DNA of 64,000 bases, from positions 2,656,001 through 2,720,000 of the forward strand of contig OY759746.1 in the NCBI GenBank assembly GCA_963662795.1. Reading direction: 5' to 3'. The DNA is from Spirochaetia bacterium. Its GTDB lineage: Bacteria; Spirochaetota; Spirochaetia; CADAEX01. The notes under the pieces were generated by a model, which was given only the letters and a program-made list of their open reading frames with translations, did no database searches and was not told where the DNA came from. This document shows, in pieces, positions 16,537-29,966 of this stretch (the stretch's first letter is position 1; the number at the start of each line of letters is the position of its first letter). The position numbers and the translations under genes are program-made.

Positions 16537-17280
16537 TCAGTAATTCCAGTTCCATTTGGAAATATCGATGGAGCTTTCAATAATGGATTCTGTATCGTCA
16601 TCAAGCTGATAAAAAAAATCAAATCCTGTAATGTTTTCTATGTAATCAATAGGGAAAGCGAAAGCCTGTAATACTGCCGTGCATTTTTTGTTGGGGATAA
16701 TGAAGCCGATCCCCTTGATATCAGGTTCTGATGAATCAGCTATTACCTTGAAGAAATATGAGGGGACTGCTACATTATTTGTTCCTATTGTTTTATATCC
16801 TTCTGTGATTATCGGCCCTGTTGCAACAAGGATTTTTTCATTGCTTATTGCCCACTGCCGCACAAGTTCTTCCAGGTCTTTCCAGACTTTTCTGTTAAAC
16901 TGCGCTTCCTGGGGGCTTATGTTGCTCATGTAAAATGATTCACCCATAGCCTCTTCCGACCATTTCATATCTCCCGCCGGGGCAAGATGCCCCCTGTCGT
17001 ATCCTGAAGCCTTATAATCTGAAGGATCGGCGGAGCCTGTAATGATATTGGGGTCAGGCCTGAAATTGTCTTTTCTTCTATGAATGCCGCGCGCTTCATC
17101 CGCTGTAAGCTCCCAGGCAACCCAGTCTGGCTGTTCAAAAATTTCGTTATACTACAGTGAAAACCCTGTATAGCTGTATATTTTTCCGGAAGGAAAAGGT
17201 AACTCATGAGTCTGGGGACATACATTCTGCGCTGCTGCGAGCAGTAAAAAAATAACAAAACGGTACTTGCTGCTGATAAT
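16537..17280 (-). pseudogene. NucA/EndoG-family DNA/RNA non-specific endonuclease interrupted by an in-frame TAG
   Basis: One frame reads ..YTGFSL*YNEIFEQPDWVAWEL..FRPDP..GYDRGHLAPAGDMKWSEEAMGESFYMSNISPQ..FNRKVWKDLE; TAG at 17152-17154; no ATG start (ATT at 17280 after AGGGGG). Confidence 0.85.
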
Positions 17281-18436: not shown

Positions 18437-20344
18437 TTACGCAGTTTTTGAGGCGCTTTTCTGGGTAAAAAGCGATACAGCTACAAGCACTGTAAATGAA
18501 AGCGGTATTGAAATAATACCAGGATTGTCCAGAGGGAAAACTGCGTCTGCAGGATTCCATCCGTACATTGCGAACATGCTGGGAGATAAAAGTATAATAG
18601 CAATTGATGAAACTACCCCGACAGCAACCGATGCCGTTATTCCTTTTGAGGTGGTTTTTTTCCAGAAAAGAAGCATGATTATCGCCGGTAGGTTTGCAGA
18701 TGCCGCAATAGCGAACGCAAGTCCTACAAGGAATGAAACATTCATCCCTTTGAAAAGTATCCCGAGTATAATGGCAATGCCTCCTACAACTACGGCCGAT
18801 ATTTTCCCCGCTTTTACCTTGCTGCTGTCTGAGAGTTTCATTCCCAGAAAGTTGGTCATGAGGTCATGGGCTACCGCACCTGATGCCGCTACTATGAGGC
18901 CGCTTACAGTTCCAAGGACGGTAGCGAATGCGATTGCCGAAATAATGGCAAACAGATAAACACCAAAGGTCTTCGCCAGTAAAGGCGCTGCCATGTTGCT
19001 GCTTTCAACATCCATACCGCCGTTTACCATCGCCCCGATACCCATATAAAGTGTAAGGATATAGAAAAATCCTATAGCGGCAATTGCCACAATTGTCGAT
19101 TTTCTCGCATCCTTGGGACTCGGTACTGTGTAATACCTTATAAGAACATGAGGAAGCGCGGCAGTTCCAAAGAAAAGCGAGAGCATAAGGGATACAAAAT
19201 TAAGTTTTGAAGTAATTGATGAATCTCTTTCAATCTTGAATTTTAGGCCCGGCCTTAATATTTTATTGCCTTCTGTATTTTTCTGGTGCCAGATAGTAAC
19301 CTTGTCTTCTCCGTCTGTTATTGTTACAGGATTAAACAAACTGACTCCGCTTTTCTGGATTACAGAGAAAAACTTAAATGGACCGAGTGGACCTGTTTTT
19401 TCAACTTCTTTTCCATCCACTACAATTTTTGTCATGTGTCCAACAGAGTAGAATTTTTCCGCTTCTTTCGGTTCACCGTTGTACAGCACTTTGCCTTTAT
19501 CTGTTTTTGTTTTTGAAAGCACTTCTGTAAGTGTCCAGCTTCCTTCTTTTTGACTGAGCTGCCACCATGTTGAAATCCCGCCTTTGTCAAGTTTTACAAA
19601 ATCAAGATCTCCTGATTTAACCTGTGAGGAAACTGCATAGGATTTATCAGCTATGGATGTTACACTGCCCCCGGTGGCAACTGCTTCAATCTTTTTGAAT
19701 TCATGATAATTATCGTTAGGTTTCAGGTTTAATCCTTTTCCAAGGATACTGAAAACAAGTATTGTAGAAAAAACAATCAGCAGCCCCCCTTTCAGGAACT
19801 GGACATAGGTAGTTGATTTCATCCCTGCAGTCGCGACAATCAGTATTACAATACTTCCAACCATAATTACACCGACATAGTGGGGAAGTCCGAGCAGCGG
19901 AGTTACAAGCGCGCCTGCTCCAACCATCTGCGGTATGAGATAAAAGATTGAAATTACAAGGCTGCTTATCCCGGCGACAAGCTGTATTCCCCTGGAATTG
20001 AATTTTGAGTCAAGCGCGTCTGTAAATGTATATTTCCCAAGTCTTTTCATGGGCTCTGCTACTACAAACAGGGCTACGACCCAGCCGGCAAGATATCCTA
20101 TCGAATATAGAAATCCGTCATATCCGGCGGTAGCGATCATACCGCAGATTCCGAGAAATGATGCTGCGGAAAGATAATCACCGGCGAATGCTACTCCGTT
20201 TACAGGCCAGGATATGGTTCCCCCTGCTGTATAATACCCTTTTGATGAACTGGTCTGACGGGCGAAATAAAAAGAGAGGCCGAGAACCATAATGACAAAA
20301 AAGAAAAAAACGCCGATTGCGATAGGAGATGCTGTATAGATCAT
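18437..20344 (-). CDS. actP: cation/acetate (monocarboxylate) symporter ActP
   Basis: NGVAFAGDYLSAASFLG, FFGTAALPHVLIRYYTVP, FATVLGTVSGL, ASANLP; carries a ~170-aa hydrophilic loop insertion. Confidence 0.92.
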   Translation of the reverse strand: MIYTASPIAIGVFFFFVIMVLGLSFYFARQTSSSKGYYTAGGTISWPVNGVAFAGDYLSAASFLGICGMIATAGYDGFLYSIGYLAGWVVALFVVAEPMKRLGKYTFTDALDSKFNSRGIQLVAGISSLVISIFYLIPQMVGAGALVTPLLGLPHYVGVIMVGSIVILIVATAGMKSTTYVQFLKGGLLIVFSTILVFSILGKGLNLKPNDNYHEFKKIEAVATGGSVTSIADKSYAVSSQVKSGDLDFVKLDKGGISTWWQLSQKEGSWTLTEVLSKTKTDKGKVLYNGEPKEAEKFYSVGHMTKIVVDGKEVEKTGPLGPFKFFSVIQKSGVSLFNPVTITDGEDKVTIWHQKNTEGNKILRPGLKFKIERDSSITSKLNFVSLMLSLFFGTAALPHVLIRYYTVPSPKDARKSTIVAIAAIGFFYILTLYMGIGAMVNGGMDVESSNMAAPLLAKTFGVYLFAIISAIAFATVLGTVSGLIVAASGAVAHDLMTNFLGMKLSDSSKVKAGKISAVVVGGIAIILGILFKGMNVSFLVGLAFAIAASANLPAIIMLLFWKKTTSKGITASVAVGVVSSIAIILLSPSMFAMYGWNPADAVFPLDNPGIISIPLSFTVLVAVSLFTQKSASKTA

Positions 20345-20631
20345 TTGGCGCCCCCTTCGGTACTGATATTCAGTTCATCCTCTTTCTTTGTACAGAAATA
20401 GTTATAGATTATTCCCAAAATGATTGCTAACAGAATGAGACCGAATCCGTAAACAATCGCGAGGTTAAGCCCCAGAAAAATTTCCTTCTCCATAATTACA
20501 GGATTTAATGTGTTGATAGCTACAAATAATCCGTAAATTAATGCGTAGACAAAAAAGAGAATAACTCCCAGTTTTGATTTATACCTGATTGCATTATCCG
20601 GACCGAGCTGAACGGCAGGACCGTGATCCAT
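20341..20631 (-). CDS. DUF485 / YjcH-like small membrane subunit of ActP
   Basis: Two TM helices, GLNLAIVYGFGLI; overlaps the actP start; ATG 20631 after AAGGGG. Confidence 0.85.
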   Translation of the reverse strand: MDHGPAVQLGPDNAIRYKSKLGVILFFVYALIYGLFVAINTLNPVIMEKEIFLGLNLAIVYGFGLILLAIILGIIYNYFCTKKEDELNISTEGGAK

Positions 20632-20697
20632 ATATACCCCCTTAAAGTTGTTAAACTTCATGATGACTGCTAAAAGCAGTATAAGTCAAGCAAAAAA

Positions 20698-20714
20698 CTG
20701 ACCGACCGGTCGAT
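20698..20714. promoter_or_regulatory. palindromic operator-like site in the divergent promoter region
   Basis: Perfect palindrome CGACCGGTCG (20703-20712), GC-rich within an AT-rich intergenic region. Confidence 0.5.
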
Positions 20715-20757
20715 AAAAATAGTTACTCCTGGAGGCAAAGCTGTATTATAATGAAAA

Positions 20758-23700
20758 ATGATGAATGAGCCTTTCCTGACTGTAAACATGCACTGCCACT
20801 CAAATCTCAGCGATGGTATTCTGCCTGTTGATGAACTTGTGGAATTTTTATCGAAAAACAGCGTTCAGTTCGCCTCCCTTACTGATCATGATACTTTGAA
20901 GGGACAGGAGCTTTTTCATGACCTCTGTGTAAAAAGCGGTATCGGGTTTGTCAGCGGTATTGAAATTACTGCTTCATCTGAGTGGGGTGAGCTCCATCTG
21001 CTTGGATACGGCTTTAATTACAGGAGCGAAGCAATAAAGGCTTTTTTTCCTGATGACCTGCCATCGAGAACTGCTGTTGATTATAGAACTGTCATAGATA
21101 TTGTCCATGCGGAGGGAGGGAAGGTCTTTCTTGCCCATCCGCTGACTGTTTCAAAAGATTTTACGGCTCTTTCGTCAATTATCTCCCGTTTAAGGGAAGC
21201 CGGACTTGACGGAATTGAGGCTTTATATGGAATGTATGAGGAAGCTGATCAAAAAAAACTGCTTTCTATAGCTGAAGAACTTGATCTTCTTGTTTCTGCC
21301 GGGACAGATTATCACGGTTTTACGATGCCTTCAGGAGGTGCTCCTGCTTTTCGGAAAGCAGGTTTGTTTTCCAAACCAGGAGAGAGTATTTCTTATGATA
21401 ACTGGAAAAAATTCCGCTTAGCCGTATTCAGCAATTCCGCGGTAAATTCTTCTGTTACGACAGGCAGCAACGGTGCTGCTGACAGCAGAGATTCCTCCCG
21501 CTCCAATAAAAAAGAAATTAGCAGAATAAGCTATTTAAAAATAATTTTTCCCGCGTTTCTCGCTGTTTTACTGTTTACTGTTACTATTTTCAATATCCTG
21601 ATTCCTAAAATTGAAGATGTTCTTCTTGCCAGGAAAAAGGAAATGATAAAAGAGCTTACAAATTCGGCTGTAAGCATTCTTGAAGAATTCAATCTCGATG
21701 TTGAAAACGGCCTTATTACGGAAGATGAGGCAAAGCAGAAAGCTGCAAAAATTATTGAGTATATAAGATATGGAGGGGAACACAAGGATTATTTCTGGAT
21801 TACAGACATGAAGCCTGTGATGATTGTCCACCCCTACAAAAAAGAACTTGAAGGAAAATATGTCGGCGATTATCAGGACAATGCCGGCACAGCTGTATTC
21901 ATGAAATTTGTTGAAGCTGTAAGAAAAAACAGGGAAGGGTATGTTGAATATCAGTGGCAGTGGAAGGATGAAAAAAGCAGGATTATGTCAAAGCTTTCCT
22001 ATGTTAAACTTTATGAACCCTGGGGCTGGATTATAGGAACAGGCATTTACATAGATGATCTTCAGATTGAGGTAAAAAAGATAGAAAGCTTTATTATAAG
22101 TTTTTCTGTTGTAATAATAGTAACAGTATCTATTCTGCTTTTTTTCCTGGTAACTCAAAGTATAAAATCTGAAAAAGTAAAGCAGAAAAAAGAGAAAGCA
22201 CTCGCCGAGTCAAACGAGAAATACCGAACCCTTGTATCAGCCACAGGAGAAGGCACTCTTATTATACAGAACGGTAAATGCACCTATTCAAATCCGAAGA
22301 TACAGAATATTTTAGGCTATACTGAGGATGAACTGCTTCTCCTTGCGATTCAGGATATTATTGTTCCCGAATCTGTGGATTCCCATGGAAGATTTTATAT
22401 CGAATCCCTGATGCATAACGAAATACTTCCGTCTGTCTGTGAAACCGGAATGAGAAAAAAAGACGGTAAATTCATCGATGTCATTCTTGATACAGACAGG
22501 ATAAATTTTTCAGGCGGTGACGGGTTTATAATAAATGTAAGGGAAACCGAAAAAAGCGGCAGACTCAGCTATATAAGGGACAGGAAGAAAAATAAAATAA
22601 TCGGGGAGCTGCAGACAGCGATTCTTTTTTTAAGCGAGCCGGTCGTCAACATAGCAGAAGAGGCTGTAATCTGCCCCATGAAAACCAGAATTCGTGAAGC
22701 CGCATCAGTAATGACTGAGAAAAAAGTTTCCTCAATTTTTATCTCGTCGGAGGACGGGGAGATAATAGGAATTGTAACAGATCATGATATCAGAATGAGG
22801 GTCGTATCCGGGCAGATTAATCCTCAGGAAAGTCTTTATAAAATAATGAGTTCGCCTTTAATTTCAATTTCAGGCAGTTCCCTTATTTATGAGGCAATCT
22901 CAGTAATGAGAAGAGGCAGCATAAGCCATCTTGCTGTAAGGGATGAGGGGGGCAATCCATATGCTGTGGTAAGGGCAAAAGAGCTTCTTGCGTTTCATAA
23001 ATATCCTGCCGCAGTACTGACTTCTGAAATTAATTCGGCAGGTTCGTTTACTGAACTCAGGAGATCTTTCAGCAAAATGCCTGTAATGATGAAAACACTT
23101 GTTGATACCGGAGTCAAGCCTCAGAATATAACCAGAATGATATCATCCTTTTCCGATTCACTTACTGCAAGAATTATAGAACTTGCAGAGTCTGAGCTGG
23201 GGCCACCTCCTGTAAGCTATGTCTTTATATCGCCCGGAAGCCACGGAAGGGGAGAGCCTACGCTTGTTTCAGACCAGGATAACGCGATTATCTACTTTGA
23301 TATGGCGGATGACGAAAAAGAAAAATCCGCGGTTGAGTATTTCATAAAGCTTGGGGAATTGGTCTGCTCCGAGCTTGCCAGGTCCGGGTTTGAGCTCTGC
23401 AAAGGGAAAATCATGGCAAGCAATCCTGCATGGGTCTGTTCCCTTTCCGGCTGGAAAAAATATTTTACTGCGTGGATAACAGAGCCTAAAGCTGAAGAGT
23501 TTCTTAAATTCAACATGTTCTTCGATTTCAGGGTGATATACGGCGATTCTGTGCCGGCGAAGGAACTCAGGAGCCATATAAAAAGGCTATTGGCGGTGAA
23601 TCCCCCTTTCTTTGCCCACCTTGCCCAGAATACCCTTCTTTATAAAACACCTTTAGGATTTATGGGTAATATTATCTTTAATACTGATGATTCAAGTAAC

Positions 23701-24057
23701 CAGATATTCGATATAAAGGAAGCGCTGCTTCCAATTGTAAGTTTTGCCAGAATTTATGCCTTAAAGCATAATATTGAAAATACAAATACCTGGGAAAGAC
23801 TTTCACAGCTTAGTGAAAAAGGAATAATTCTTGAATCAAGCTATAATGAAATAAAGCATGTTTATGATTTTCTTATGCAGATGCGTCTTAATACCCAGTC
23901 TGCGGCAATGGATAACAACCTTGAGCCCGGCAATACTGTCTCGAGATCTTCACTTACCAATATCGAGACAGCGCTGCTTAAGAATTCCCTCAACCAGATT
24001 TCAGACATACAGAAGAAAATAATATATGATTTTATGGGTGGTGTGAATCCGTCCTGA
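20758..24057 (+). CDS. multidomain sensor: PHP phosphoesterase - TM - sCache_2 - TM - PAS - CBSx2 - DUF294 nucleotidyltransferase - DUF294_C
   Basis: PHP motifs HCHSNLSDG, TDHD, GIE, HLLGY, AHP, GTDYHG; Cache YFWITD..HPY..YVEYQW..KLSYVKLYEPWGWIIGTGIY; CBS GIVTDHDI; NTase GSHGRGE..SDQDNAI; FFDFR; DIKEALLPIVSFARIYAL. Confidence 0.88.
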   Translation: MMNEPFLTVNMHCHSNLSDGILPVDELVEFLSKNSVQFASLTDHDTLKGQELFHDLCVKSGIGFVSGIEITASSEWGELHLLGYGFNYRSEAIKAFFPDDLPSRTAVDYRTVIDIVHAEGGKVFLAHPLTVSKDFTALSSIISRLREAGLDGIEALYGMYEEADQKKLLSIAEELDLLVSAGTDYHGFTMPSGGAPAFRKAGLFSKPGESISYDNWKKFRLAVFSNSAVNSSVTTGSNGAADSRDSSRSNKKEISRISYLKIIFPAFLAVLLFTVTIFNILIPKIEDVLLARKKEMIKELTNSAVSILEEFNLDVENGLITEDEAKQKAAKIIEYIRYGGEHKDYFWITDMKPVMIVHPYKKELEGKYVGDYQDNAGTAVFMKFVEAVRKNREGYVEYQWQWKDEKSRIMSKLSYVKLYEPWGWIIGTGIYIDDLQIEVKKIESFIISFSVVIIVTVSILLFFLVTQSIKSEKVKQKKEKALAESNEKYRTLVSATGEGTLIIQNGKCTYSNPKIQNILGYTEDELLLLAIQDIIVPESVDSHGRFYIESLMHNEILPSVCETGMRKKDGKFIDVILDTDRINFSGGDGFIINVRETEKSGRLSYIRDRKKNKIIGELQTAILFLSEPVVNIAEEAVICPMKTRIREAASVMTEKKVSSIFISSEDGEIIGIVTDHDIRMRVVSGQINPQESLYKIMSSPLISISGSSLIYEAISVMRRGSISHLAVRDEGGNPYAVVRAKELLAFHKYPAAVLTSEINSAGSFTELRRSFSKMPVMMKTLVDTGVKPQNITRMISSFSDSLTARIIELAESELGPPPVSYVFISPGSHGRGEPTLVSDQDNAIIYFDMADDEKEKSAVEYFIKLGELVCSELARSGFELCKGKIMASNPAWVCSLSGWKKYFTAWITEPKAEEFLKFNMFFDFRVIYGDSVPAKELRSHIKRLLAVNPPFFAHLAQNTLLYKTPLGFMGNIIFNTDDSSNQIFDIKEALLPIVSFARIYALKHNIENTNTWERLSQLSEKGIILESSYNEIKHVYDFLMQMRLNTQSAAMDNNLEPGNTVSRSSLTNIETALLKNSLNQISDIQKKIIYDFMGGVNPS

Positions 24058-24104
24058 CAGCGCATACCCTGATGCCGTATAAAAATATAAGGAAGAATAA
24101 AAGT

Positions 24105-24914
24105 ATGAAATACTCACTCTGCATTACAACTCCCGAGGTGAAAGCTGTACTTCCTCTTGCCATGCTAAGAGGTTCTTTTATGGAAAAAACAGTAAAAGCT
24201 TCAAATTACGGTTATGCCGGTGTTGAACTTATGACAGTTGAGCCGCTCAAGGTCGATGCTTCCTTTATCAGGGATTCGCTTTTGTCGGGAGGTCTTGCGA
24301 TTTCCGCTGTTTCTTCCGGCGCTGTTTTGTCAACAGCCGGTCTCTCTCTCCTTGCGGAAGACGAAAAAACAAGAGCGGCCGCAGGGAAACGACTTTCTGA
24401 GCTGATTCAGTTTGCAGGCAGGACCGGGGCGAAAATTGTAACAATAGGCAGTTTCCGCGGCAGGGCTTCTTCAGTAGGAGGAAGCAGGAATGCTTACCGT
24501 ATTCCTTCCGCAGTTTTAAAGGAATCCTCAGCAGAAGCTGAATCCCTGAACGTAAGTATCGCACTTGAACCGATAAACCGTTTTGATTCGGATTTCCTGC
24601 ATACCGCGGATGAGGCCTCCGGCTTTATAGAAAATACCGGCTGCAGCAATCTAGGGATTCTGCTGGATACATTTCATATGAATATGGAAAGCCCTCCTTA
24701 CTCTGCCACAGGTAATGCTACCCTGTGGGATGAGGGTTGGTTTGTTTTTAATCTTGATGATGGTGATTCTTCTCAATTTATTGTTTCATCCGATATTGTA
24801 GTTGACAGTCTGGTGAAAATTGAAGTTTTTTATGATACTGAGGGAAATTTTCCTGTAACTGTTACCAGTCATACTGTTGGAGGGGGACCAGAAATCTATA
24901 ACATTAAATATTGA
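24105..24914 (+). pseudogene. sugar phosphate isomerase/epimerase (TIM barrel), C-terminus replaced by unrelated sequence
   Basis: GYAGVEL, IGSFRG, ALEPINRFD, LLDTFHMNME present; the expected downstream HxxD..R and terminal E motifs are absent after ~24690. Confidence 0.65.
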
Positions 24915-25044
24915 ATGGGATATTAATATTGATGGTGAAAAAAATCTTTGGGTTAAAATGTCAAATGATTCTATTGACTATTCAGGAATCTTTTATAACC
25001 TTATATGGTTTGTATCAAGATATTGAAAGATAACGGGATGTATT

Positions 25045-26415
25045 ATGAACTTTAGAATTGAAAAAGACACGATGGGCGAGGTAAGGGTACCGGAAGACAG
25101 GTACTGGGGCGCCCAGACACAGAGAAGTCTTGAGAACTTCCGGATCGGGAAAGAGAAAATGCCCATGGAGGTGATTACCGCACTTGCCGTAATCAAAAAG
25201 GCAGCTGCGGCTGTTAACAGCAGCCTGGGAAAGCTTGATGCCGGGAAAATGGATGCCATTGTAAAAGTCTGCGATGAAATTATTGATCATAAGCTTGACG
25301 GGCATTTCCCCCTGTCGGTATGGCAGACAGGCAGCGGTACCCAGAGCAATATGAATGTTAATGAGGTTATAGCAAACCGTGCCAACGAATTACTCGCATC
25401 CGGAGGGGAAAAAATACATCCCAATGATGATGTCAACATGTCCCAGAGCTCAAACGATGCCTTCCCTTCCGCGATGCATATCGCCTCTGTTCTTGAGACT
25501 GAAAATTCGCTTCTTCCAGCGATTGTAAAACTGCTTGGGACATTCAAGCGTCTTGAAAAAGAAAATGAGGGTATAATCAAAACCGGACGCACCCATCTTC
25601 AGGACGCGGTGCCTATTTCCTTTTCCCAGGAGATAAGCGCATGGACCCACATGCTTGAGAAAGGGAGGAAGAATGTCCTCATGTCGCTCGAAGGGCTGCG
25701 CTCTCTTGCTCTCGGCGGCACTGCCGTCGGGACAGGGCTTAACGCGCACCCTGATTTCGGACGGATGGCAGCTGAAGAAATAAGCAGAATAACCGATGTA
25801 AAATTCTTCACAGCGAAAAATAAATTCCACGCGCTTTCAAGCAGGGATGATCTTCTCTTTGCGCACGGCGCGCTTAAGGCCCTTGCCGCGGATCTAATGA
25901 AGATAGCAAACGATATAAGGTGGCTTGCAAGCGGACCGAGGTGCGGGCTGGGGGAGATTACAATACCTGAAAATGAGCCCGGCAGCTCAATTATGCCCGG
26001 AAAAGTCAACCCTACCCAGTGCGAGGCGCTTACAATGGCAGCCTGCCAGGTCATGGCAAACGATACAGCAGTAACCCTTGCTTCTTCCCAGGGGAATTTC
26101 CAGCTGAATGTTTTTATGCCGCTGTGTATTTACAACTATCTGCAGTCAGTCCGGCTTCTGTCTGATTCTATGAATTCGTTTAACGATAACTGCGCCTGCG
26201 GCATAAAACCTGACAGGGCAAAAATGAAAAGCAATCTTGACCGGTCCCTTATGCTTGTCACAGCCTTAAATCCTAAAATAGGCTATGAAAACTCTGCAAA
26301 AGTCGCCAAGCTGGCCTTTGAAAAAGGGATTACCCTGAAGGAGGCTGTAATAGAATTGAACCTGCTTACGGGAAAAGAGTTTGACGATCTTGTGAAACCT
26401 GAAAAAATGGTCTGA
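25045..26415 (+). CDS. fumC: fumarate hydratase class II
   Basis: WQTGSGTQSNMNVNEV, GRTHLQDA, GSSIMPGKVNPTQCE. Confidence 0.96.
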   Translation: MNFRIEKDTMGEVRVPEDRYWGAQTQRSLENFRIGKEKMPMEVITALAVIKKAAAAVNSSLGKLDAGKMDAIVKVCDEIIDHKLDGHFPLSVWQTGSGTQSNMNVNEVIANRANELLASGGEKIHPNDDVNMSQSSNDAFPSAMHIASVLETENSLLPAIVKLLGTFKRLEKENEGIIKTGRTHLQDAVPISFSQEISAWTHMLEKGRKNVLMSLEGLRSLALGGTAVGTGLNAHPDFGRMAAEEISRITDVKFFTAKNKFHALSSRDDLLFAHGALKALAADLMKIANDIRWLASGPRCGLGEITIPENEPGSSIMPGKVNPTQCEALTMAACQVMANDTAVTLASSQGNFQLNVFMPLCIYNYLQSVRLLSDSMNSFNDNCACGIKPDRAKMKSNLDRSLMLVTALNPKIGYENSAKVAKLAFEKGITLKEAVIELNLLTGKEFDDLVKPEKMV

Positions 26416-27511: not shown

Positions 27512-29326
27512 ATGATCGGATTCAGAAAAAGCATAGGGTTTGAATTATCAGGTTATATTCTCATAACAATGATTCTTTTCCTGGCCGCCATACTTGTCTT
27601 CAGCATAAAATATATCAGTACTTTTTTTATTAATGCTGCGGAAGATCAGTCAATGACTGTTCTTTATGAAACCGACTATAAGATAAAGAGCTTTTTTAAC
27701 GATATTGAAAATCTTTCGGAATCGCTGATTAATTACAGCGCTGTATACGAAGTGAGGACTTCTGAGATGAAGGAACTGTTTATCTCAAATGTTCTTGCAA
27801 GGAAAAAATATTTAAGGGCCATTTACCTGGGAACAAAAACTGATAAAATGTACGAATGGGGCTATGGCGAGGGATTCATTGATTATACCCCGAGTTTCCC
27901 TGAGGGTTACAGTCCTGTCTACAGGCCATGGTATAAAACTGCAATTGAAAAAAAATCCCATGCAATTACAAACCCCTATGTCTATGCAAGCATAGATAAA
28001 ACCGGAATTACAAGCGTAAATCCTGTTTATAATACTGAAACCGGAGAATTCACCGGAGTTCTGGGCATAGATATAATGCTTGACTCGATGAGCGATTTCC
28101 TTGAAGAGATAAATATTACAAATAACGGAAAAATAGTGCTGCTCACCGATACAGGTTATATAATTGCAAGTCAGTTCAAAGATTTGGAAGGAATATCATC
28201 ATCCATACATGATGTGCTCATCGAAAATCTTAAAAATATGATAGACGCTCATACCGGCAGATTTTTTACCCGCCTGAAGGGGGATGACTATTTTATTGTT
28301 TATAACAGAAATACAATAACCGGCTGGATTATCGCAATTGGATACCCCTATTCAGGAATAACTGAGGGGCTTGATAAAACACTTCTGGTAATATCTGCAG
28401 TGTATCTGCTGCTTACAATAATGCTGACAATCACGCTTGCGGGGATAAGCCGTCAGCTTATAGTAAAGCCTCTTGAAAATCTTGTTTCAGTAATGAAAAT
28501 GATTGAGAGCGGCAATCATGCTGCAAGGGCGGATGTAACAACCGAAAATGAATTTTCCATCCTTGGAGCTCAGTTTAACAGACTGTTTGAACTTGTACAG
28601 GAATATTCACAGTGCCTTGAGAAAAAAGTCGACGAGAGAACAAGGGAAGTGATACATCTGCAGCATGAAAACACCCGGCTCAGGATAATCGAGGAGAAGG
28701 AGAGAATAATAAGTGAATTGCATGATTCAATCGGCGCAAAACTTACCAATATCAATATCTGCAACAATGTAGCCATCAGCCTTGCCGGCCGGGAGGAAGG
28801 CGATCTTCTCAGGATGCTCAAGGTGACGGATGATAATTGTACAAACGCCATGCATGAACTCCGGGATATTGTGAACGGCATAAGCAGGCAGAATGCCTCT
28901 GAGCAGCTGATCTGTTTTATCGAGGAGGAAATACCGGACCGCCTTGAGCTGAAAAATATTACTGCTGCCGTTAAGTGGAAAGTGAGAAAGAAAACATTTA
29001 TCTCAGGTATTACAGAAGAAACTGCCGGAGAACTGGTTAAAATCATTGAAGAGCTTACCAGTAATATCTTGAAACATTCAATGGCGAATAACGTTAAAAT
29101 TGAAATTTCAATGATGAAGAAAATATTTGAAATAGTATTCAGGGATAATGGAACAGGCTTTAATCCCGAAATTCAAGGCAGCGCTGATAAAGGATACGGA
29201 CTTAGAAATATCAGGCAGAGAATTGAAAAAACCGGCGGTACTGTAAGGATTGAATCAAAACATGGCGGAGGGACATCTGTCTTCCTTGTTTTCCCTGCTG
29301 CAGGAGCAGTTATTGAAACAGCTTAG
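27512..29326 (+). CDS. sensor histidine kinase (dCache_1-HAMP-HisKA_3-HATPase_c)
   Basis: TM-dCache-TM; YSPVYRPWY; ERIISELHDSIG H-box; NILKHS, DNGTGF, GYGLRNI. Confidence 0.92.
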   Translation: MIGFRKSIGFELSGYILITMILFLAAILVFSIKYISTFFINAAEDQSMTVLYETDYKIKSFFNDIENLSESLINYSAVYEVRTSEMKELFISNVLARKKYLRAIYLGTKTDKMYEWGYGEGFIDYTPSFPEGYSPVYRPWYKTAIEKKSHAITNPYVYASIDKTGITSVNPVYNTETGEFTGVLGIDIMLDSMSDFLEEINITNNGKIVLLTDTGYIIASQFKDLEGISSSIHDVLIENLKNMIDAHTGRFFTRLKGDDYFIVYNRNTITGWIIAIGYPYSGITEGLDKTLLVISAVYLLLTIMLTITLAGISRQLIVKPLENLVSVMKMIESGNHAARADVTTENEFSILGAQFNRLFELVQEYSQCLEKKVDERTREVIHLQHENTRLRIIEEKERIISELHDSIGAKLTNINICNNVAISLAGREEGDLLRMLKVTDDNCTNAMHELRDIVNGISRQNASEQLICFIEEEIPDRLELKNITAAVKWKVRKKTFISGITEETAGELVKIIEELTSNILKHSMANNVKIEISMMKKIFEIVFRDNGTGFNPEIQGSADKGYGLRNIRQRIEKTGGTVRIESKHGGGTSVFLVFPAAGAVIETA

Positions 29327-29966
29327 CGTGTATATTGTTGAGGATGTAAATGAAGTCAGAGAGGGGCTCCGCTACCTTTTGAGCCTTGACGGGGAAATCA
29401 ATGTTATTTCTACATTCAGCTGTGCTGAAGAACTGATTCTTGATCTTTCCCGCGGCGGACGTGCTGATGTTATACTGATGGATATCGGTTTACCGGGTAT
29501 GGACGGTATTGAGGCGACAAAGGTTGTCAAGAAGTGTTATCCCCATATCAGCGTATTAATGCTTACTGTGTTCGGTGAACAGGAAAAAATTATCCGGGCT
29601 GTAAAAGCCGGGGCTTCAGGGTATGTTCTTAAAAACACAAAACCGTCACAGCTTTCAGACCAGATTAAATCCATAAGAAACGGCGGCTCTCCCATAAGTC
29701 CTGAAGCGGCAAGCAAGCTTTTTGAGGAATTCAAGAAAGATGAAAAAACATCTGTTCCCGGAGATGATGATGCCTACAATCTTACCGCACGGGAAAAAGA
29801 AATACTGAAAAGCATTGCAAACGGTTATACATATAGGGAAATAGCCGGTATCTTTAAAATTTCAAGCGCAACTGTCAAAAAGCATATACTCCATATTTAC
29901 CGTAAGCTTGATGTTTCATCAAAAGTGGAATTTATGAAAAAAGTACTGAATGAGAATCTGCTTTAA
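29313..29966 (+). CDS. NarL/LuxR-family response regulator
   Basis: IVED, ILMDIGLPGMDG, GYVLK, LTAREKEIL..TVKKHILHIYRKL; TTG start at 29313 after AGGAG. Confidence 0.93.
   Translation: MKQLSVYIVEDVNEVREGLRYLLSLDGEINVISTFSCAEELILDLSRGGRADVILMDIGLPGMDGIEATKVVKKCYPHISVLMLTVFGEQEKIIRAVKAGASGYVLKNTKPSQLSDQIKSIRNGGSPISPEAASKLFEEFKKDEKTSVPGDDDAYNLTAREKEILKSIANGYTYREIAGIFKISSATVKKHILHIYRKLDVSSKVEFMKKVLNENLL

Follow-up and report, generated by a model that had tools for sequence, protein, structure and literature searches.

The window, a 64,000-nucleotide stretch from a Spirochaetia bacterium (contig OY759746.1), contains an uninterrupted 1099-residue open reading frame that encodes a one-component membrane receptor (Table 1). 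Pfam and NCBIfam matches together with hydropathy bear out the PHP-TM1-sCache_2-TM2-PAS-CBS-CBS-DUF294 order and topology that a first-pass annotation had read from the same DNA. There are exactly two hydropathic TM segments, with K/R-rich flanks toward the PHP and PAS sides, which places the PHP domain and the C-terminal half in the cytoplasm and the Cache domain outside. As that annotation had also claimed, the named PHP, Cache, and nucleotidyltransferase motifs are intact. Indeed, all of the catalytic and ligand-binding motifs of the protein are, and the named ones do not vary among 18 aligned full-length relatives. Nucleotidyltransferases of this Cache-PAS-CBS-DUF294 kind form a widespread family.

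Table 1. Features of the receptor gene and its divergent neighbours (positions in the window).
Feature	Position	Strand	Remarks
Whole gene, PHP-TM-sCache_2-TM-PAS-CBS-CBS-DUF294-DUF294_C	20758..24057	+	1099-aa receptor; ORF and profile matches
PHP phosphoesterase, cytoplasmic, RNase AM/YciV/Cv1693 type	20758..21453	+	aa 1-232; nine metal ligands intact; insertion (lid) domain missing
TM1	21541..21597	+	aa 262-280; hydropathy
sCache_2, periplasmic	21610..22092	+	aa 285-445; predicted C2/C3-carboxylate pocket Y345 W347 H358 F381 Y398 W400 K412; Pfam, structure-sequence match
TM2	22093..22149	+	aa 446-464; hydropathy
PAS	22204..22545	+	aa 483-596; TIGR00229 over cut-off, Pfam PAS just under
Tandem CBS pair	22654..23022	+	aa ~633-755; profile matches
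DUF294 pol-beta-type nucleotidyltransferase core	23077..23490	+	aa 774-911; G827 S828 R831 E833 D839 Q840 D841; D923 just past end
DUF294_C helical domain	23605..24030	+	aa 950-1091; with DUF294, a GlnE/DrrA-like two-domain module
DUF485 small membrane protein, YjcH-like	20341..20631	-	probable start M11 of longest ORF (20341..20661)
ActP/MctC-type sodium:solute symporter (SSF), 'long' form	18437..20344	-	635 aa; ~170-aa insert between TM6 and TM7
Divergent intergenic region	20632..20757		126 bp; GTCAAG 20685-20690; inverted repeat GAC-N6-GTC 20700-20711

Divergent from the receptor gene lie genes for a DUF485 protein and an ActP-type symporter. Alignment of 27 DUF485 neighbours puts the DUF485 start at M11, so that the intergenic region spans 126 bp (96 bp with the longest ORF), in agreement with the ~125 bp given previously. 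Both GTCAAG and the GAC-N6-GTC repeat are kept in four orthologous same-family loci, all four of which also keep the divergent arrangement, and the region is probably an operator for a transcription factor. The DUF485 alignment contains no conserved cytoplasmic tyrosine. The genome's best match to the acetyl-CoA synthetase model TIGR02188 scores 130.5 bits, below the cut-off of 724.95, making Acs an unlikely target here, and there is no RNase T gene within 228 kb of the receptor gene.

The sensory part of the protein resembles receptors for small carboxylates, as the first-pass annotation had proposed. Pfam sCache_2 matches aa 291-442 (E 3.4e-40), and the domain aligns with acetate-bound Adeh_3718 (4k08, E 2e-31) and with PscD (5g4y, E 5e-31). 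The Y345-F346-W347, H358-P359, Y398-x-W400, and K412 motifs are among those invariant in the 18 relatives. In PscD, seven residues contact acetate or propionate (PMC5062169); all seven are kept here and are invariant in the same alignment, and this pocket is a predicted carboxylate pocket. The MctS model also matches the Cache region (E 1.1e-24), at 86.6 bits against a cut-off of 700. Like PscD, Adeh_3718, McpP, and VP0354 (2qhk/4exo), the protein places a periplasmic sCache_2 domain between two TM helices. The output of sCache_2 chemoreceptors is an MCP signalling domain, whereas here a putative carboxylate ligand would act on a nucleotidyltransferase and a phosphoesterase. Control of an SSS-family transporter by carboxylate sensing is a theme shared with the sensor kinase systems MctS/MctR and CrbS/CrbR, but this receptor lacks kinase, receiver, and DNA-binding domains. 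Further along, NCBIfam sensory_box (TIGR00229) matches the PAS region at 44 bits (cut-off 22.9), where Pfam PAS reaches 22.1 against 22.6, and Pfam CBS matches two stretches (E 4.7e-16).

The C-terminal module gives clear profile matches to DUF294 (E 3.7e-42) and DUF294_C (E 6.1e-35). Its motif, G827-S828-x-x-R831-x-E833 ... S838-D839-Q840-D841 plus D923, is invariant in the 18 relatives; across 68 sequences G827, S828, R831, D839, Q840, and D923 are invariant and E833 and D841 are at least 90% conserved. A structure model of aa 760-1099 (pLDDT 94.7) has only four Foldseek matches at E <= 1e-3: the GlnE N-domain (1v4a, 1.9e-9), DrrA with Rab8a (6yx5_B, 2.7e-9, TM 0.68), and the GlnE C-domain (3k7d chain A, 2.6e-8; chain B, 4.7e-8). 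In VIA-align, run over 48,161 chains, GlnE and DrrA likewise take the top three places (Z 26.5, 25.6, and 24.8 over 297-299 residues) and are the only full-length matches with high Z. The next rows are partial DrrA entries (Z 12.9 and 12.8) and single HEPN-like helical domains (Z 8.5-9.7), and the next full-length fold is ANT(4') (Z 9.0). As modelled, then, the nucleotidyltransferase has the GlnE/DrrA fold, in keeping with the GlnE-type assignment of the first-pass annotation. The top three matches are enzymes that add AMP to, or strip it from, a protein tyrosine.

The module shares with GlnE, GlnD, and Legionella DrrA/SidM the two-domain nucleotidyltransferase fold and the G-x(n)-D-x-D motif, although no GlnD structure appears among the matches of the model. 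A further common theme, which extends to SidD, is the pairing of adding and removing activities under sensor control; GlnD, for example, combines a nucleotidyltransferase with an HD hydrolase and ACT sensors. Identity to GlnE/DrrA is nevertheless 13-16%, the gene lacks a GS, PII, or Rab context, and the protein sits in the membrane with its sensor outside the cell. In those systems the nucleotide is taken off by an HD domain, a PPM fold, or a second nucleotidyltransferase domain; here the candidate for that task is the PHP domain. We found no biochemical data on any DUF294 protein in the literature.

This PHP domain is recognized by Pfam at aa 11-95 (31.7 bits, cut-off 26.4). Its metal motifs (H12-x-H14, D19, D43-H44, E69, H80, H127, D184-x-H186) are invariant in the 18 relatives; among 36 sequences H12, H14, D19, H44, E69, H127, and D184 are invariant and H80 and H186 are at least 90% conserved. 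The best structural matches of its model (pLDDT 90.7) are 7ug9 (E 1.8e-16, TM 0.80 on the target), 9etk, 3e0f, and Cv1693 (2yb1), and sequence matches to structures of this type run from E 9.2e-16 to 7.5e-11. Of these, 7ug9 and 9etk are RNase AM, and Cv1693 is a pAp phosphatase. With RNase AM (YciV/TrpH) and Cv1693 the domain shares the PHP fold and nine metal ligands, but it is fused ahead of a TM helix and lacks their insertion domain of ~75 residues (3e0f residues ~111-184). The top NCBIfam model, 3',5'-nucleoside bisphosphate phosphatase, matches at E 1.7e-27, with scores far below the equivalog cut-offs (96.3 bits against 400, and 75 against 375 for another model). YwqE/CpsB, which are PHP-fold protein-tyrosine phosphatases, rank only 49th among the structural matches (E 6e-3).

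A genome scan returned at least 598 relatives in many phyla, and we examined 80 loci. The PHP fusion is present in 35 of the 80 and absent from 45; given these numbers, it is not an assembly chimera. In a tree of the nucleotidyltransferase part alone, the PHP forms fall on one side of a branch (27 versus 41 rows, SH-aLRT 99), indicating that the fusion arose once, and they span at least nine of the phyla named in the tree. A calcineurin-like phosphoesterase gene adjoins none of the 35 PHP-fused loci but 29 of the 45 PHP-less ones, a contrast that Fisher's p of 1e-10 overstates: the PHP clade reflects one evolutionary event, so that the 80 loci are not independent observations. The partners fall into two subfamilies that show no similarity to each other (E 0.27), one upstream (17 loci in its cluster) and one downstream (10 loci), with the partners at L045 and L012 added via tblastn. 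The nearest named models are phosphodiesterases: PRK09453 for the upstream type and YfcE for the downstream type, plus PdeM. The PDB sequence matches of the downstream type are to Dbr1 alone, a 2'-5' phosphodiesterase. One PHP-less locus instead has an RNase T-domain gene beside it and another a GAF-HD gene; a separate PHP gene occurs in none of the 45. In 16 of the 45, several on cut contigs, the fetched flanks hold no calcineurin-type gene. This distribution supports the view that the PHP domain would stand in for a separate phosphoesterase. The first-pass annotation was thus right that PHP replaces a partner, but it had named a DEDDh exonuclease, and in the membrane-bound relatives the partner is mostly calcineurin-like. 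Since fused PHP, two unrelated calcineurin-like subfamilies, and RNase T-like proteins all occupy this role, the nucleotidyltransferase apparently requires a phosphodiesterase as partner, whatever its fold. The predicted linkage to actP-type genes also extends to homologues: 52 of the 80 loci have a symporter gene (26/35 PHP-fused, 26/45 PHP-less), and the fetched flanks of the other 28 have none.

Soluble COG2905 relatives carry a cNMP-binding domain, two CBS repeats, DUF294, and DUF294_C. PP_0354 forms an operon with the RNase T-like PP_0353 in Pseudomonas alloputida; loss of either gene lowers growth on propionate, and loss of PP_0353 also lowers it on pyruvate (10.64898/2026.09.07.749794). 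A pflu5625 mutant is described as lacking a phenotype (PMC5715377). Cofitness ties a COG2905 gene to an adjoining DUF4212-symporter pair in both Shewanella and Pseudomonas stutzeri, and Price et al. speculated that COG2905 is required for symporter expression (10.1101/072470). PP_0354/PP_0353, Pflu5625 (P. fluorescens), Sama_1525, and Psest_0349 share with our receptor a CBS-DUF294-DUF294_C output, a partner of the phosphodiesterase type, and a link with the uptake of acetate, propionate, pyruvate, or lactate, which in their case runs through the CrbS/R (MxtR/ErdR) regulon with actP and acs and through DUF4212-symporter cofitness. Our receptor has a transmembrane sCache_2 and PAS sensor where they have the cNMP-binding domain, and an N-terminally fused PHP domain where they have a separate DEDDh gene.

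The protein is probably a membrane receptor for acetate-like acids outside the cell, as predicted from its sequence; on the cytoplasmic side a GlnE/DrrA-type enzyme could modify a target with a nucleotide, which an RNase AM-type enzyme could take off. We tentatively favour a switch gated by carboxylate and by energy. It would reversibly attach a nucleotide to a protein, target and chemistry both being putative, and would act on the uptake of monocarboxylates. The sCache_2 domain would bind a C2/C3 monocarboxylate (acetate, propionate, pyruvate, or glycolate), and the signal would pass through TM2 and PAS to the CBS pair, which may contribute adenine-nucleotide (energy) input, setting the balance of two activities on one polypeptide. 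The C-terminal module would transfer NMP from NTP to a hydroxyl of a protein, and the PHP domain would hydrolyse the protein-NMP phosphodiester, releasing 5'-NMP. The switch would act, in a direction that we infer, on monocarboxylate uptake or use; its most likely target is the DUF485-ActP symporter encoded beside the receptor, or a component that binds this symporter. Several observations weigh against this reading: the missing conserved tyrosine on the cytoplasmic side of DUF485, the low rank of YwqE/CpsB, the 16 PHP-less loci lacking a calcineurin-type neighbour, the 28 loci lacking a symporter gene in the fetched flanks, and the pflu5625 mutant.

Both RNase AM and RNase T cleave a phosphodiester to yield 5'-NMP, and we assume that the calcineurin-like partner does so too; the bond cut would be that of a protein-O-NMP adduct. 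The partner families (RNase AM-like PHP, RNase T, calcineurin-like, HD) are nucleic-acid or nucleotide hydrolases, none of which is known to us to remove AMP from proteins, and the first three types are as compatible with breakdown of a messenger, whether oligonucleotide or nucleotide, as with protein de-NMPylation. On carboxylate sensing, DUF294 might turn NTPs into a linear or cyclic (oligo)nucleotide that diffuses and is degraded by PHP or by a calcineurin-like, RNase T, or HD partner, much as in GGDEF-EAL or cyclase-phosphodiesterase pairs; a putative effector would adjust how carboxylates are taken up or metabolized. This fits partner families that degrade nanoRNA, pGpG, pAp, or cyclic nucleotides, the RNase AM and Cv1693 likeness of PHP, the PRK09453, YfcE, PdeM, and Dbr1 matches, and the RNase T and GAF-HD genes beside paralogues; second-messenger enzymes, too, are usually built from a sensor linked to a synthase and a hydrolase. 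We nonetheless consider it unlikely: the nucleotidyltransferase model reaches Z 25-26 with GlnE and DrrA but only marginal values with CD-NTase-like entries (CdnC, Foldseek probability 0.23; HalB, Z 6.9), the 80 neighbourhoods hold no conserved candidate effector gene, and the close operon association with a single transporter points to a local target.

Post-transcriptional control of the symporter, in which the nucleotidyltransferase extends an RNA 3' end (actP mRNA, a small RNA, or tRNA, for example) and an exonuclease-type partner trims it, strikes us as improbable. Poly(A) polymerases and CCA-adding enzymes are pol-beta nucleotidyltransferases, exoribonuclease families account for two of the partner types (RNase AM-like PHP and RNase T, including PP_0353), and the speculation of Price et al. 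about symporter expression points the same way. Yet the strong structural matches include no CCA-adding enzyme or poly(A) polymerase (tRNA-processing 3wfo has Foldseek probability 0.11), the C-terminal helical domain is of GlnE/DrrA/HEPN type without an RNA-binding module, calcineurin-like and HD partners are atypical exoribonucleases, and this PHP lacks the RNase AM insertion domain. There is a similarly slim chance that the two ends are unrelated, PHP being a membrane-tethered housekeeping pAp/nanoRNA phosphatase and DUF294 acting alone, on itself or a small molecule. The top PHP model, the 16 PHP-less loci without a calcineurin-like neighbour, and the rank of ANT-type small-molecule enzymes as next full-length match are consistent with this; against it stand the bit score far under the phosphatase cut-off, the mutual exclusivity of PHP and the calcineurin-like gene, the recruitment of two unrelated subfamilies to the same position beside the gene, and the retention of the fusion across phyla.

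The anatomy, folds, linkage, and partner substitution of the first-pass interpretation thus stand, while the DEDDh identity of the partner does not. The architecture is not unique but common in databases, and the protein is one of a widespread and unstudied family whose genes adjoin acetate-type transporters.

The receptor is encoded in one uninterrupted reading frame, and we found in it the domain order and all of the motifs that the first-pass annotation had listed (see table). By hydropathy there are exactly two membrane segments, with the sCache_2 domain between them; because their K/R-rich flanks lie on the PHP side and the PAS side, the PHP domain and everything after TM2 are placed in the cytoplasm and the Cache domain outside the cell. 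By every sequence criterion the receptor is a member of the DUF294 family. It differs from the classical soluble DUF294 form in its sensor, which is Cache-PAS instead of cNMP-binding, and in its partner, which is a fused PHP domain instead of a separate DEDDh gene. Neither Pfam nor NCBIfam yields a match to the cNMP-binding domain in the receptor, and its place is filled by the series PHP, TM, sCache_2, TM and PAS.

Coordinates of the receptor, its parts, and neighbouring features in the window (aa, residues of the encoded protein)
Feature	Position	Remarks
Receptor gene	20758-24057 (+)	1099 codons
PHP	aa 11-95	over curated cut-off (Pfam)
TM1	aa 262-280	hydropathy scan
sCache_2 (PF17200)	aa 291-442	137.9 bits, cut-off 25 (Pfam)
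TM2	aa 446-464	hydropathy scan
PAS	aa 483-596	NCBIfam sensory_box 44 bits vs 22.9; Pfam PAS slightly below cut-off
CBS pair, two stretches	aa ~633-755	directly N-terminal to the nucleotidyltransferase; over curated cut-offs (Pfam)
DUF294 (PF03445)	aa 774-911	143.9 bits, cut-off 21 (Pfam)
DUF294_C (PF10335)	aa 950-1091	120.6 bits, cut-off 22.5 (Pfam)
DUF485 gene (PF04341)	20341-20631 (-)	E 7.2e-10; precedes the symporter gene
Symporter gene (PF00474)	18437-20344 (-)	E 2.9e-67; 'long' form, 635 aa
Symporter insert	aa ~202-375	~170 aa, between sixth and seventh hydrophobic segments; no Pfam match
Intergenic element	20685-20711	GTCAAG, then inverted repeat GAC-N6-GTC
TIM-barrel gene	24072-24914 (+)	scores best as IolO-like epimerase, 118.6 bits, cut-off 300
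Kinase/regulator pair	27512-29966 (+)	dCache_1-HAMP-HisKA_3 histidine kinase and LuxR/NarL-type response regulator, 3.5 kb downstream
ORF	16537-16968 (-)	matches only positions 92-222 of the 223-position DNA/RNA non-specific endonuclease model
ORF	16965-17258 (-)	97 aa, just upstream of 16537-16968; no Pfam match

The nucleotidyltransferase has no PDB match by sequence. We compared its fold using a model of residues 760-1099 built on 68 sequences (pLDDT 94.7). Foldseek returned only four matches at E <= 1e-3, namely the GlnE N-domain, Rab8a-bound DrrA and two GlnE C-domain chains, with E-values from 2e-9 to 5e-8. In an independent all-against-all aligner, the top matches (Z 26.5, 25.6 and 24.8) cover 297-299 residues at an rmsd of 2.9-3.8; the next rows are partial DrrA entries (12.9, 12.8) and single HEPN-like helical domains (8.5-9.7), and the next full-length fold after GlnE/DrrA is ANT(4'), at Z 9.0. 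This full-length superposition, with all others far lower, makes the modelled module a GlnE/DrrA-type enzyme by fold. It shares the two-domain arrangement of GlnE, GlnD and DrrA, a pol-beta core with a helical C-domain, over the full length; the likeness is one of fold, from which the same class of activity is only predicted. The pol-beta motif G-S-x-x-R-x-E ... D-x-D and the third acidic residue are complete in the receptor (G827, S828, R831, E833, D839, Q840, D841, D923), and are invariant or at least 90% conserved in an alignment of 18 sequences; across the 68 sequences, G827, S828, R831, D839, Q840 and D923 are invariant and E833 and D841 are conserved in at least 90%.

The sensor end of the protein can be read in similar detail. 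In the PDB, the Cache domain matches the acetate-bound Adeh_3718 (4k08, E 2.3e-31), PscD (5g4y, 4.7e-31) and the pyruvate-bound Vibrio domain (2qhk/4exo). The residues of PscD described as contacting propionate are Y90, W92, H103, F126, Y143, W145 and K156 (Brewster et al., PMC5062169). All seven align to identical residues in the receptor (Y345, W347, H358, F381, Y398, W400 and K412) and all seven are invariant among 18 full-length relatives, which makes a C2/C3 carboxylate a well-founded prediction for the Cache ligand.

The PHP domain, modelled on 36 sequences (pLDDT 90.7), is closest to the PHP domain of RNase AM (7ug9; E 1.8e-16, rmsd 1.9 over 180 columns), followed by 9etk, 3e0f/3o0f and 2yb1; YwqE/CpsB, which are tyrosine phosphatases of the PHP fold, come 49th. 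Sequence searches find the same group: 3e0f, Cv1693 (2yb1), 9etk and the 5'-3' exoribonuclease 7ug9. All nine metal ligands (H12, H14, D19, H44, E69, H80, H127, D184 and H186) are conserved. The receptor domain thus shares its fold and full set of metal ligands with RNase AM, YciV and Cv1693, but it lacks the insertion domain of these solved enzymes: ~75 residues of this domain, which lies between their sixth and seventh ligands, have no counterpart, receptor residues 104-109 bridge residues 110 and 185 of 3e0f, and H80 and H127 are 47 residues apart. In the 18-sequence alignment, an insert ~45 residues longer is retained in other receptors of the family. Against the NCBIfam equivalog models the domain stays below the cut-offs, both for nucleoside bisphosphate phosphatase (96.3 vs 400 bits) and for RNase RNM (74.9 vs 375 bits).

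The fusion of these domains is widespread. A protein search over 5.8 billion clusters returned 250 matches, and among the 120 of them that were listed, ~80 by manual count carry PHP (PF02811), Cache, CBS, DUF294 and DUF294_C together; these proteins, of 1050-1273 aa, come from Chloroflexi, Planctomycetia, Spirochaetaceae and others, and a second set without PHP measures 790-990 aa. A scan of one genome per species confirmed at least 598 stretches as relatives, and in the best 80 of these loci, which we kept for comparison, 35 have the PHP fusion. The window's own genome has one DUF294 gene only. Within the same family, an orthologue of the receptor occurs in 5 of 20 genomes, four besides the window's own, at 94% identity in the same genus and 47-48% in the other genus. 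These occurrences reject an assembly chimera; the first-pass annotation had named a fusion confined to this assembly as the sign of one.

We also built a tree from the nucleotidyltransferase part alone, for the window and 67 loci. A single branch (SH-aLRT 99) separates the PHP forms from the other sequences (27 vs 41 rows), so that on this sequence tree the fusion is a single old event. It has spread across Chloroflexota, Armatimonadota, Spirochaetota, Lentisphaerota, Bdellovibrionota, Bacillota and several candidate phyla.

To compare gene neighbourhoods, we called ORFs at the window and at all 80 loci, clustered them by BLASTP and annotated the cluster representatives with Pfam. A calcineurin-like phosphoesterase gene (~250 aa) directly adjoins the receptor gene in 29 of the 45 PHP-less loci, two of them (L012 and L045) detected by tblastn alone; no such adjacent gene is present in the 35 PHP-fused loci or at the window. 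These genes form two clusters that show no pairwise similarity to each other (E 0.27). The first lies upstream of the receptor gene (17 loci, mostly Bacteroidota); the second lies downstream (10 loci, in Kiritimatiellota, Lentisphaerota, Rifleibacteriota and delta-proteobacterial MAGs), and in L076 and L067 its gene and the receptor gene overlap at their stop and start codons. The metal motifs of the superfamily are visible in both, in aligned snippets for the upstream type and in an alignment for the downstream type. Sixteen PHP-less loci lack a calcineurin-like neighbour, several of them on cut contigs, and none of the 45 has a separate PHP gene. Among the sixteen, L073 has a GAF-HD gene directly upstream, and a locus of Desulfobacter latus AcRS2 (L008, 4055-18484) holds four DUF294 paralogues: a soluble CBS-DUF294 protein of 494 aa, one Cache form of 830 aa, another of 864 aa in which CBS is not matched, and a cut Cache-PAS-CBS-DUF294 form. 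They are accompanied by a DUF3360 gene and by a protein of 681 aa that carries an RNase T domain at its C-terminus.

The first-pass annotation had proposed that PHP stands in for a separate partner enzyme. The contrast between 0/35 and 29/45 loci bears this out, although the separate partner is mostly calcineurin-like and not the DEDDh enzyme then expected; near the receptor there is no DEDDh (RNase T-like) gene, the single PF00929 match of the genome lying 228 kb away. Since the PHP fusion arose once, the loci behind this contrast cannot be counted as independent; what did occur independently is the recruitment of different folds, namely the fused PHP, the two calcineurin-like subfamilies and RNase T. 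The clear comparative signal is that the nucleotidyltransferase comes with a phosphodiesterase of one fold or another (fused PHP, one of the two calcineurin-like types, or RNase T).

We predicted a complex between the cytoplasmic part of a PHP-less receptor (L009, aa 245-843) and its adjacent phosphoesterase of the downstream calcineurin-like type. The score was 0.32 vs 0.00 for the best of three controls; the runs gave 0.32, 0.00 and 0.43 and agree in at least 0% of contacts, with a pLDDT of at least 77 for the phosphoesterase. Of 80 solved complexes, 58 reach the mark for this score, as do 2 of 110 mismatched pairs, and passing scores of at most 0.60 comprise only 7 of the 80 solved complexes but both of the mismatches. 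We take the prediction as weak support for a complex and give it little weight.

Two further gene arrangements stand out at PHP-less loci. In L061, L064 and L075, which lack a calcineurin-like neighbour, a convergent AP_endonuc_2 TIM-barrel gene lies just downstream, with weak matches to the CbiR phosphodiesterase and endonuclease IV (nfo) models; it may be another alternative phosphodiesterase partner, or be there by chance. Bacteroidota loci (L013, L016, L021, L034, L079 and others) have a conserved same-strand row of genes for DUF4212, a VC_2705-type symporter, a TPR protein of ~257 aa (13 loci), a 418-aa protein (10 loci) with no Pfam or NCBIfam match, the calcineurin-like phosphoesterase and, at its end, the receptor. 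Beyond the annotated clusters, no recurring gene cluster was found in the best 80 neighbourhoods of the at least 598 relatives.

The linkage to a symporter gene seen at the window is conserved. Such a gene is present in 52 of the 80 loci (26/35 of the PHP-fused and 26/45 of the PHP-less ones), and in each of the four orthologous loci of the same family the receptor gene and the DUF485-actP pair are arranged divergently. Where the receptor is 47% identical, ActP is 78% identical. The small partner gene varies: DUF485 occurs in 21/35 PHP-fused and 5/45 PHP-less loci, and DUF4212, the small subunit of the VC_2705-type symporter, in 0/35 and 14/45. Close relatives of the window's symporter are annotated as 'cation acetate symporter'. 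The symporter itself scores below the equivalog cut-offs for MctC (447.6 vs 670 bits) and ActP (402.9 vs 750 bits) because its insert splits the matches to these models in two. The symporter is far better conserved than the receptor: its relatives of 628-653 aa, from Acidobacteria, Anaerolineae, delta-proteobacteria, Spirochaetales and other groups, share 66-72% identity along their entire length. As the insert follows six TM segments and the first loop is K/R-rich, it is probably periplasmic, which makes it an unlikely cytoplasmic target. Among 27 DUF485 sequences we found no conserved cytoplasmic tyrosine.

An alignment of 27 DUF485 neighbours places the real start of DUF485 at M11 of the longest ORF. 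With this start the divergent intergenic region is 126 bp, in line with the ~125 bp first described. The element within it, found at the same place in the four orthologous loci (L094-L097), looks like the operator of some transcription factor; its spacing differs from that of the CrbR motif examples printed in PMC5715377. A scan for promoters was uninformative, with 12 sites vs 9.1 +/- 2.8 in shuffles. The kinase/regulator pair downstream is a possible transcriptional regulator of the actP locus.

In the 3.93-Mb genome (G000), no acetyl-CoA synthetase exceeds the TIGR02188 cut-off (best 130.5 bits vs 724.95), which argues against Acs as the target here; either acetate imported by ActP would have to be activated in a different way, or other monocarboxylates are the transporter's main substrates. 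We rejected the TIM-barrel gene downstream of the receptor as a part of the system: it adjoins the receptor gene in the same-genus genome only and is absent beside it in three genomes of the other genus. It matches the 286-aa frame of its same-genus orthologue only to about residue 218, and the C-terminal 70 residues of that orthologue have no match in window positions 24000-25100; the gene is probably truncated or rearranged. Likewise, the two ORFs at 16537-17258 (-) may be a split or frameshifted endonuclease gene.

Published work connects soluble relatives to carboxylate use. DUF294/COG2905 was placed in the nucleotidyltransferase superfamily by a 1999 paper, as cited in PMC5715377. According to that article, the acetate regulon under CrbS/R includes, besides actP and acs, P. 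fluorescens Pflu5625, a protein with cAMP-binding, CBS and nucleotidyltransferase domains whose mutant showed no phenotype. In Shewanella amazonensis and Pseudomonas stutzeri, DUF4212 and the symporter are cofit with a nearby COG2905 gene, which Price et al. speculated is needed for symporter expression (10.1101/072470). In P. alloputida, the operon of PP_0353 (RNase T-like) and PP_0354 ranks with the genes that depend most strongly on MxtR/ErdR; deletion of either gene reduces growth on propionate, and deletion of PP_0353 also on pyruvate, and this September 2026 preprint terms their function unclear (10.64898/2026.09.07.749794). The literature that we searched reports no activity for any DUF294 protein. 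Our new contributions are the pattern of partner swapping and the ligand prediction.

Both RNase AM and RNase T cleave phosphodiester bonds by hydrolysis, releasing 5'-NMP, and we assume that the calcineurin-like partner does likewise. A protein-O-NMP adduct would be such a phosphodiester, with a protein hydroxyl replacing the 3'-oxygen of the neighbouring nucleotide. In the mechanism we propose, the GlnE/DrrA-type module would add an NMP to a protein and the hydrolase partner would remove it, as in a GlnD-like switch; extracellular carboxylate would gate the switch, as adenine nucleotides probably would through the CBS pair, and the symporter complex, to which the conserved neighbour genes point, would be the object of control. 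The GlnE/DrrA fold, the sensor-controlled architecture and the required but interchangeable hydrolase partner together fit the addition and removal of NMP on a protein best, and we give a carboxylate-gated switch of this kind, acting on carboxylate uptake, a little under an even chance. The interpretation in the first-pass annotation is in part supported, and the observation beneath it is confirmed.

Enzymes of these partner families are also classically known to degrade nanoRNA, pAp and cyclic nucleotides, and for this reason two rivals remain. That the receptor is a synthase/hydrolase pair for a nucleotide messenger seems to us unlikely, and that its two enzymes tail and trim RNA is more improbable still. 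A PHP domain functionally unrelated to the nucleotidyltransferase fits poorly with the swapping of partners, and we rate it as low as RNA tailing. Other transmembrane signalling outputs are phosphorylation and second-messenger synthesis. That protein nucleotidylylation is a third such output in bacteria, in which an extracellular metabolite sensor directly drives reversible modification of a membrane transporter or its small subunit, with the adding and removing enzymes on one polypeptide and an exchangeable eraser fold (PHP, calcineurin-like, DEDDh or HD), is a reading we consider rather doubtful.

The input of the receptor is predictable, its Cache pocket corresponding to the acetate/propionate pocket of PscD, and this ligand together with the partner swapping makes the proposed addition and removal of NMP directly testable by simple experiments. 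To our knowledge, the cases of control by nucleotidylylation described to date are nitrogen assimilation (GlnE, GlnD) and a small number of toxins and effectors; should the proposal hold, carboxylate uptake would be controlled post-translationally in this way. If instead the receptor makes and hydrolyses a messenger, carboxylate sensing would be coupled to a new nucleotide messenger system. And if reversible nucleotidylylation is indeed a third transmembrane output, it would give a function to the DUF294/COG2905 proteins, which are widespread and part of the acetate regulon in model bacteria.
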